Positions 25,569 through 26,543 of a stretch of 64,000 nt of DNA are shown here, one piece after another. The stretch lies in NCBI RefSeq assembly GCF_057098645.1, contig NZ_CM169472.1. One strand, 5' to 3'. Each line of letters starts with the position of its first letter. Positions within the stretch are counted from its first letter, which is position 1. The notes beneath the pieces were generated by a model, which saw nothing but the letters and a program-made list of their open reading frames with translations, ran no database searches and had not been told where the DNA came from. A program made the position numbers and the translations under genes.

Positions 25569-25769
25569 TCACCAGCTACACAGTATATACACACTGACGC
25601 TGACAGTAGTCAGCAGGACCACAATAATCAGTGCCAGCAGTATGGTAACGATACGGTCTGTATTCCGGTAATAGCCGAAGGGGTCGACAGAACCACAATA
25701 CGGGCAACACACAGTATTATGAGTAATCGCGTTTCCACAGTCCCAGCACTTCTTTTTGCGTATCACCAT
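25569..25769 (-). CDS. Small zinc-ribbon membrane protein (about 66 aa)
   Basis: MVIRKKKCWDCGNAITHNTVCCPYCGSVDPFGYYRNTDRIVTILLALIIVVLLTTVSVSVYILCSW: two CxxC pairs followed by one hydrophobic helix; AGGAGGG RBS 5 nt upstream of the ATG. Confidence 0.5.
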   Translation of the reverse strand: MVIRKKKCWDCGNAITHNTVCCPYCGSVDPFGYYRNTDRIVTILLALIIVVLLTTVSVSVYILCSW

Positions 25770-25973
25770 CACTCCCTCCTCACAGCCTTACCCGTAACCG
25801 GTTTTTTACATTAAAAAAACAACGCTGAAAATTCAACCGTCAGTCCGGAGACGACCGTTCGGGTTATCTCAGAGTGCCTGAGATATTGCCTGGTTGGAGA
25901 TCACTTCAGGGACTCTGCGCATTTTTTACGGCGTGGTTAATCCGTATGAACGAAACCATACGGAGATTTAACC

Positions 25974-26543
25974 ATGACCTACAAATACAACCCCTTCTGG
26001 CAGCAACGTATTCGTGAGACGGTGCGGCACGCACTGGATGTTCATCCCCGCCTGACGGCATTGCGGGTTGATCTGCGTCTCCCGGATGTACCGGCAGCAA
26101 CGGACGCGGCTGTGATATCCCGCTTCATCAATGCCCTGAAAGCCCGAATCGACGCTTACCAGAAACGTAAGCATCGGGAAGGTAAACGCGTGCATTCCTC
26201 GACCCTGCATTACGCCTGGGCCCGGGAGTTCGGGGAGCTTAAAGGCAAAAAACACTATCACCTGCTGCTGCTGGTCAACCGGGATACCTGGTGTCGTGCC
26301 GGCGATTACCGCGCTCCGGGGTCACTGGCCGGAATGATTAAACAGGCCTGGTGCAGTGCCCTGGGGGTGGATGCCGGATGTTATGCCACGCTGGTGCATT
26401 TTCCGGTCAGGCCGGCGGTGTGGCTGGAACGCGATGATGAAACCGGCTTTCAGCAGGTACTGGAACGTGCTGGCTATCTGGCGAAGGAGCATACCAAAGC
26501 TCGCGGCACCGGTGAGCGCAACTTTGGCTGTAGCCGGAGTTGA
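25974..26543 (+). CDS. YagK/YfjJ-family protein (annotated in databases as inovirus Gp2-like)
   Basis: 189 aa MTYKYNPFWQQRIRETVRHALDVHPRLTALRVDLRLP...KKHYHLLLLVNRD...; family typical of CP4-like islands. Confidence 0.65.
   Translation: MTYKYNPFWQQRIRETVRHALDVHPRLTALRVDLRLPDVPAATDAAVISRFINALKARIDAYQKRKHREGKRVHSSTLHYAWAREFGELKGKKHYHLLLLVNRDTWCRAGDYRAPGSLAGMIKQAWCSALGVDAGCYATLVHFPVRPAVWLERDDETGFQQVLERAGYLAKEHTKARGTGERNFGCSRS

Follow-up and report, generated by a model that had tools for sequence, protein, structure and literature searches.

The small proteins that come closest to the one described here belong to familiar groups. As far as is known, characterised zinc-finger micro-proteins are soluble. 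The tail-anchored class of E. coli that comprises ElaB, YqjD and YgaM consists of helical, ribosome-associated proteins of about 100 amino acids (aa). Type I toxin–antitoxin (TA) peptides (Hok/Sok, Ldr/Rdl, TisB/IstR-1, Ibs/Sib, ZorO/OrzO) are small single-helix proteins of mobile or cryptic elements with a stand-alone promoter, and the gene considered here resembles them in these respects. It lies in a stretch of 64,000 nt from contig NZ_CM169472.1 (RefSeq assembly GCF_057098645.1), the whole of which is referred to as the window and which is an E. coli island at tRNA-Phe, of the CP4-57/SRL-PAI type. The gene encodes a 66 aa protein with a putative zinc ribbon and a single C-terminal transmembrane (TM) helix, and is divergently oriented to a gene of the YagK/YfjJ family. 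In the reading favoured here, to which we give about an even chance, the small gene would be a real accessory gene of mobile elements, its product an anchored zinc-ribbon binding module, and there would be no dedicated link to the YagK/YfjJ gene.

The small gene and its product

The divergent pair has the following layout in the window:

25569..25769, minus strand: small gene (ATG 25769–25767, stop 25571–25569, stop included), from the list of open reading frames (ORFs) and its translation
25775..25780, minus strand: Shine-Dalgarno (SD) sequence AGGAGG of the small gene, 5 nt before the ATG, read from the sequence
25695..25748, minus strand: putative zinc ribbon of the small protein, codons 8–25, with knuckles CWDCG and CPYCG
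25584..25652, minus strand: single C-terminal TM helix of the small protein, codons 40–62, the most variable segment
25770..25973, no strand: divergent intergenic region, 204 bp, between the two start codons
25974..26543, plus strand: YagK/YfjJ ('inovirus Gp2 family') gene, 189 aa, a predicted Rep-like HUH endonuclease

The original prediction, made from the letters of this DNA, had described a protein of 66 aa with an AGGAGG ribosome binding site (RBS), two CxxC pairs and one TM helix, facing a YagK/YfjJ gene across roughly 200 bp, and all of these elements were recovered. The product has the sequence MVIRKKKCWDCGNAITHNTVCCPYCGSVDPFGYYRNTDRIVTILLALIIVVLLTTVSVSVYILCSW, with CxxC motifs beginning at residues 8 and 22 (8–11 and 22–25); an in-frame GTG at 25772, one codon 5' of the ATG, is a second possible start. 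Hydrophobicity peaks at residues 40–58 (the best 19-residue window, mean Kyte-Doolittle (KD) value 2.99), and only 1–8 residues follow the hydrophobic window. AlphaFold2, run with an alignment of 14 sequences, predicts one helix at residues 34–65 (block pLDDT 81–92), the sole part of the protein that the model resolves. Both the hydrophobic window and the modelled helix place the sole TM segment at the extreme C-terminus, as in tail-anchored proteins. The six lysine or arginine residues among residues 1–39 and the zinc ribbon, the only two indicators used, suggest that the N-terminus lies in the cytoplasm. Matches to Pfam were weak and to generic zinc ribbons, namely Zn_ribbon_3 (PF13248, E 6e-4), DZR (PF12773) and DUF2116 (PF09889, E 0.37), while searches of NCBIfam, PHROGs and PADLOC gave sub-threshold zinc ribbons, weak PHROGs of unknown function and no defence family. 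The ZAS anti-sigma proteins (HxxxCxxC) were considered informally and dropped, as the spacing H17-x3-C21-x3-C25 does not fit and 39 residues are too short.

A 241-bp stretch containing the small ORF has 6427 matches, which are spread over 3494 of 5426 complete E. coli genomes with up to six copies per genome. The original prediction remarked that small proteins of this kind are rarely annotated, which does not apply here: RefSeq/PGAP already calls the gene (WP_001336481.1), as 'hypothetical protein' and sometimes as 'zinc-ribbon domain-containing protein', so it is not overlooked in current annotation. The frame is still open in alleles down to 54% protein identity (five alleles, up to 46% different), and all retrieved alleles retain an SD sequence (variants in other alleles being of GAGG/AGGGAG type), a start (ATG, or ATC then GTG), a frame of 64–66 codons and a hydrophobic tail. 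Pairwise differences among the five alleles, counted over the first 40 codons, fall at codon positions 1, 2 and 3 in the numbers 53, 59 and 134. In a six-frame comparison of the same alleles the annotated frame alone was free of stops, and it had the lowest ratio of nonsynonymous to synonymous differences (pN/pS). The corresponding ratio of substitution rates (dN/dS; Nei-Gojobori, first 39 codons) was 0.11–0.17 for deep allele pairs at dS 0.4–1.5. Judged by this pattern of substitution, the small ORF is a genuine gene under purifying selection. A literature search found nothing on the protein; two papers name the Gp2-like gene alone, as part of the island core, and in the phage collection the sole match was one 20-residue fragment at the end of a record.

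Conservation is unevenly spread along the protein. Among 14 alleles no change occurs at C8, H17, N18, T19, C21 and C22, and conservation reaches at least 90% at C11 and C25, the invariant columns lying mostly in residues 1–39 (M1–K5, C8, H17-N18-T19, C21-C22-P23, Y33-Y34-R35 and T37-D38-R39). The TM-coding third is scarcely alignable as DNA between allele classes and shows an apparent dN/dS above 1 between them, yet it is hydrophobic throughout (KD 2.65–2.97). Since the invariant residues are mostly in 1–39, and the helix drifts but stays hydrophobic, it would be the domain that does the work while the helix only anchors it, and the pattern leans towards a membrane-anchored binding module rather than a pore-forming toxin.

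BLAST homology between allele classes ends at nt 25653, at about codon 39. The TM part and some 400 bp beyond it are class-specific; what the classes have in common is the intergenic region and the zinc-ribbon part. The break looks like a recombination or module boundary within the coding sequence.

The small protein is most likely a tail-anchored protein of the inner membrane, in which a basic, cytoplasm-facing zinc ribbon of 39 residues (CxxCG-x10-CPxCG, followed by DPFG and YYRNTDR) would be held by one C-terminal helix. The zinc ribbon and juxtamembrane part would form the working surface, binding a nucleic acid or protein partner in the cytoplasm, and the helix would serve mainly as an anchor. 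In each of its settings (islands, F-type and Dot/Icm-type elements, see below) the small gene is oriented against its neighbours and would have its own promoter. Zinc binding, the N-in topology and the existence of a binding partner are inferred by us from these sequence features.

An unlikely alternative is that the protein is a membrane-damaging toxin, acting in post-segregational killing of the type I kind or as an abortive-infection or exclusion effector, with a helix that perturbs the inner membrane when in excess. Small size, a single helix, a strong SD sequence and a location on a mobile element would suit such a role, as would a promoter of its own and an orientation against the neighbouring genes in islands and plasmids alike, and the fast divergence of the TM tail could be read in the same way. 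Yet conservation in the small protein is highest in the cytoplasmic zinc ribbon and lowest in the TM helix, the reverse of the pattern in Hok, Ldr, TisB and Ibs. Neither an Rfam RNA at or near the locus nor a PADLOC match for the protein was found, and the sole antisense promoter-like site (25600–25628) is not kept in other alleles, the number of such sites being that expected from shuffled sequence; an RNA of an undescribed kind may nevertheless be present. No antitoxin-like gene adjoins the small gene in the island, where the partner gene of its plasmid homologues (see below) is also absent, and up to six copies per genome are tolerated. A type I TA system was accordingly dropped as the lead reading, because no conserved antisense promoter or Rfam RNA was found and the pattern of conservation is inverted.

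The divergent YagK/YfjJ gene

The product of the neighbouring gene matches PF11726 (YagK_YfjJ_C) over profile positions 3–170 of 170 (E 4.6e-46; 157.3 bits against a cutoff of 25.8), and is 38–40% identical to YfjJ and YagK of strain K-12, being about 20 residues shorter. Residues H94 and H96 (the HUH or HxH motif) and Y168 and K171 (the YxxK motif) are invariant in 21 YagK/YfjJ homologues. The AlphaFold2 model (pLDDT 85.6, pTM 0.85) has a fold that matches the nuclease domains of SIRV1 ORF119, parvovirus NS1, adeno-associated virus (AAV) Rep, Helitron and RepB, with weak Foldseek support, while a sequence search of the Protein Data Bank (PDB) returned chance matches only. Because of the invariant motifs and the predicted fold, the protein is a predicted Rep-like nickase, and on both motif and fold it is placed in the HUH (Rep-like) endonuclease superfamily, with its activity predicted. 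It is like the HUH Rep endonucleases in its HxH and YxxK motifs and its predicted fold, and differs from them in having no identified nicking site or origin.

The original prediction also held that the divergent arrangement is conserved, and this stands inside one E. coli/Shigella island family only. There the pair is kept in all E. coli allele classes examined, including one plasmid-borne copy; however, all E. coli/Shigella pairs are copies of one tRNA-integrated island backbone, so that the adjacency is inherited and lineage-specific. The small ORF is absent at K-12 yfjJ, which directly follows yfjI, and at yagK. When GTDB r220, with each species represented by a single genome, was scanned with an alignment of YagK/YfjJ proteins, 22 loci from about 20 other species were obtained, of which nine are orthologues with 61–67% identity to the window protein (in Kosakonia, Entomohabitans, Rosenbergiella, Hafnia, Tatumella, Tenebrionibacter, Siccibacter, Superficieibacter and an Enterobacteriaceae metagenome-assembled genome (MAG)). 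A profile of the small protein matched none of the 22 loci (the best E-value, 0.057, was at an unrelated position), and no ORF combining CxxC motifs with a TM segment occurs upstream of the YagK/YfjJ gene in any of them. DNA homology between E. coli and the other genera ends about 75 nt 5' of the YagK/YfjJ ATG. The comparative half of the evidence that the original prediction had named as counting against it, absence of the small ORF beside YagK/YfjJ homologues elsewhere, is therefore what was found.

What the other genera do share with the window lies on the other side of the gene. Eight of the nine orthologous loci have one or two DUF7828 zinc-ribbon genes downstream, as in the window, and in five of these loci (among L014–L022) there is also a second YagK-like protein, in which the HUH and Tyr motifs have been lost. 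As far as gene order can tell, it is the downstream DUF7828 zinc-ribbon genes that are the conserved partners of the YagK/YfjJ gene.

These results bear on the proposal that the small protein works specifically with the divergent HUH nuclease, either by tethering it or its DNA substrate to the membrane or through co-regulation across the 204-bp region. The constancy of the pair within E. coli, the high conservation of the intergenic region and the label 'predicted nucleic acid-binding Zn ribbon protein', given to the small protein by one database source, would agree with it. We nevertheless regard it as very improbable, given the absence of the small ORF from the K-12 genes and the 22 loci of other species, where close orthologues keep the DUF7828 genes instead. 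Synonymous divergence is 0.46–1.33 in the small ORF (8 of 10 allele pairs) against 0.06–0.25 in the adjacent YagK/YfjJ gene, and because of this discordance the two genes are taken to have different histories. Further, the YagK/YfjJ gene persists in E. coli where an insertion sequence (IS) has replaced the small ORF, and the plasmid homologues of the latter are located in tra regions, where the 8–10 kb or so examined around them contains no YagK/YfjJ gene. On these comparisons the adjacency is an inherited feature of the island backbone and not a conserved functional pairing.

The region between the two genes is better conserved than the small ORF among E. coli alleles, and contains two features of its own, with a third that reaches into the start of the YagK/YfjJ gene:

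25801–25820: AT-rich near-palindrome GTTTTTTACATTAAAAAAAC (T6-ACATT-A7), kept among E. coli alleles
25805–25832, plus strand: sigma-70-like site for the YagK/YfjJ gene, from a promoter scan, a consensus match only
25930..25979, plus strand: leader hairpin of the YagK/YfjJ gene, pairing its GGAG RBS (25962–25965) and AUG (25974)

The near-palindrome sits where both divergent promoters must overlap, with a short Hha/YmoA gene about 600 bp away, and could be an operator or a silencing site of the H-NS/Hha type. The leader hairpin has an RNA minimum free energy of -24.4 kcal/mol (z = -5.3), equalled by none of 200 shuffled sequences. Its arms were recovered as inverted repeats I1 and I5, and a 5-nt indel between alleles is confined to the loop. 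This suggests translational control or, alternatively, use of a DNA hairpin by the HUH nuclease. The YagK/YfjJ frame is 12 codons longer upstream (MVMNDNPPESIS/L-M...) in Hafnia, Tenebrionibacter, Siccibacter, Superficieibacter and the Enterobacteriaceae MAG (L017, L019–L022). This concerns about 36 nt upstream of the start as aligned to the window; in E. coli the corresponding sequence is not in frame and folds into the leader hairpin instead. As the counterpart of the hairpin in the other genera is in-frame coding sequence, a comparison for covariation is uninformative.

Relatives in conjugative elements

A word-indexed search found sequences of the small protein only in E. coli and Shigella, apart from single entries from Salmonella and Klebsiella. 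A profile (HMM) search of 1.84 billion representative sequences added weak matches (E 1e-5 to 1e-3) with the same layout, two of which (P0094 and P0096) also carry the DPFG and R-x2-DR motifs. The locus of the former is a conjugative region of Dot/Icm type and that of the latter an F-type tra region, where the gene lies between traH and traG. A tblastn search against plasmids gave a match of 41% identity (E 0.04) that occurs in 117 plasmids, most of them conjugative. In the IncFII plasmid NZ_CP043219.1 (L036, 4001–4219) this is an ORF of 72 aa with a GGAG RBS, antisense to the tra operon and between traN and trbC; it is not in the gene table and such ORFs are rarely called in any plasmid. In a limited search of the literature no description was found that links this tra-region ORF to the small protein of the islands.

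Alignment of the island and plasmid families with hhalign gave a probability of 98.6% (E 7.8e-16, 53 columns). Since a composition of cysteines and a TM segment inflates profile–profile scores, and the statistics of single sequences are marginal (E 0.04 by tblastn, 2–3e-4 by HMM), we accept with that caveat that the island protein is homologous to the plasmid ORFs of 72–78 aa. Like the island protein, the latter have the pattern C-x-DCG ... C-x2-C-x-S-x-DPFG-x2-R-x2-DR-TM with CxxC motifs at 8 and 22, are borne on mobile elements and are oriented against the surrounding genes, although identity is only about 32–41%. The match of the plasmid homologue to DUF2116 has an E-value of 0.002. The family thus travels on mobile elements, beside different genes in each setting and always oriented against them.

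Each of three conjugative elements has, antisense to its tra genes, a two-gene cassette in which a small zinc-ribbon TM ORF of 72–78 aa and a larger gene of 126–148 aa converge and overlap at their 3' ends:

L036 (the IncFII plasmid), 3998–4588
L012, 5001–5588
L010, 5001–5564

The larger proteins are 57–79% identical among the three elements and have an 'ASCQGHGFP' motif. No family assignment was found for them, and a PDB sequence search with the 126-aa protein gave chance matches only. The 126-aa gene occurs in many IncF plasmids without the full cassette. By tblastn it was not recovered in the window or at nine chromosomal loci of E. coli, of which seven are islands of the present type (best E 0.035 over 22 residues).

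A more speculative proposal, which we think has little chance of being right as a whole, is that the island and plasmid proteins form an undescribed tail-anchored zinc-ribbon family that is peculiar to mobile elements and whose members would act on DNA traffic at the inner membrane, in entry exclusion, in fertility inhibition directed at rival elements, or by recruiting DNA or proteins of the element to a site of transfer or replication; in plasmids they would work as a two-gene cassette with the 'ASCQGHGFP' protein, and the TM tail would be caught in an arms race with competing elements.

Several observations weigh against the reading of the small gene as a selected, anchored binding module separate from the YagK/YfjJ gene. 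AlphaFold2 leaves the zinc-ribbon part of the protein at low confidence, and all Pfam zinc-ribbon matches are under the curated gathering cutoffs (the best score being 19.6 against a cutoff of 27). Within E. coli the small ORF almost always adjoins a YagK/YfjJ gene, and a lineage-specific functional link between them is possible. Cysteine ligands have been lost in some alleles, with CPGY in L006 and substitutions in P0002, P0026 and P0050, dN/dS is 0.5–0.7 between closely related alleles, and there are frameshifted alleles, with many frameshifted or truncated variants occurring as singletons. Ligand losses, frameshifts and these dN/dS values point to a constraint that is relaxed in part of the population, as would be expected in a decaying cryptic element. 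The view that the ORF is a decaying or functionless remnant, which has stayed open only because the islands were copied from each other recently, would draw on the same observations and on disrupted copies (a pseudogene and IS-disrupted copies, among them an IS3 insertion replacing the ORF), but is highly doubtful in the face of the low dN/dS and clear third-position bias of the zinc-ribbon half in deep comparisons, the retention of frame and hydrophobic tail where the 3' half cannot be aligned as DNA, and the homologues of the same architecture in unrelated plasmids.

Island setting and comparison with known proteins

The backbone of related islands runs, on the left, from YfjI through a 200-aa hypothetical protein, a helix-turn-helix (HTH) regulator and a short Hha/YmoA gene to the small gene on the minus strand. 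To the right of the latter follow YagK/YfjJ on the plus strand, two genes for DUF7828 + Zn_ribbon_11 proteins and sometimes the second, degenerate YagK-like gene. The table of PMC6980539 that draws on Luck et al. 2001 places the SRL island's YfjJ-like gene next to its Hha gene. The corresponding features of the window are:

6585–6660: tRNA-Phe, the left end of the island, with an adjoining integrase ORF of 420 aa (together 6585–8120)
25014..25154, plus strand: short Hha/YmoA-family ORF, convergent with the small gene and about 415 bp from it, part of the backbone; the RefSeq equivalent is annotated
26796..27203, plus strand: first DUF7828 + Zn_ribbon_11 protein (Pfam E 6e-31 and 3e-9)
27191..27625, plus strand: second DUF7828 + Zn_ribbon_11 protein (Pfam E 5e-30 and 2e-18; PGAP models in L001 and L009)

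There is an overlap of 13 nt between the two DUF7828 genes, the start of the second being set by analogy with RefSeq. Close to the Hha remnant, on its left, two neighbouring ORFs (22175–24593; 548 and 332 aa) resemble, by eye, an istA/istB pair of IS21 type. Further right are a group II intron domain match and a match to the C0719 sRNA, and two ALIL pseudoknots mark IS3 copies (landmarks at 36993–37128 and 45298–45519).

If the small gene is expressed and functional, an unstudied membrane protein under selection would be carried on a backbone that occurs in roughly two-thirds of the complete E. coli genomes, of which many are from pathogens, and the island backbone would be linked to a mostly unannotated ORF in the transfer regions of F-type plasmids. 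It would then offer a concrete target for work on small proteins, with possible insight into cryptic islands and plasmids and into the cell envelope. The practical value of the present comparison is mainly negative, in that a YagK/YfjJ gene next door is no ground for assuming a functional system; the conserved module to be studied alongside the nuclease is formed by the two DUF7828 zinc-ribbon genes downstream.

Compared with the type I TA peptides, the small protein differs in having a zinc ribbon and a TM segment that is its least conserved part, in the lack of any detected antisense or divergent small RNA, and in the lack of an Rfam match. With the ElaB/YqjD/YgaM class it has no sequence relationship, and would share the arrangement of a cytoplasmic N-terminal domain and a C-terminal TM helix with few residues beyond it. 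From generic zinc-ribbon families it is set apart by its sub-cutoff Pfam scores, its C-terminal TM helix and its juxtamembrane DPFG and R-x2-DR motifs. The C(P)XCG zinc-finger micro-proteins, such as the archaeal HVO_0758 of Haloferax (PMC10716476), likewise have two CxxCG/CPxCG knuckles about ten residues apart in fewer than 70 aa. The small protein is an uncharacterised addition to a familiar kind, that of small zinc-ribbon proteins with a membrane anchor, and is already annotated as hypothetical.

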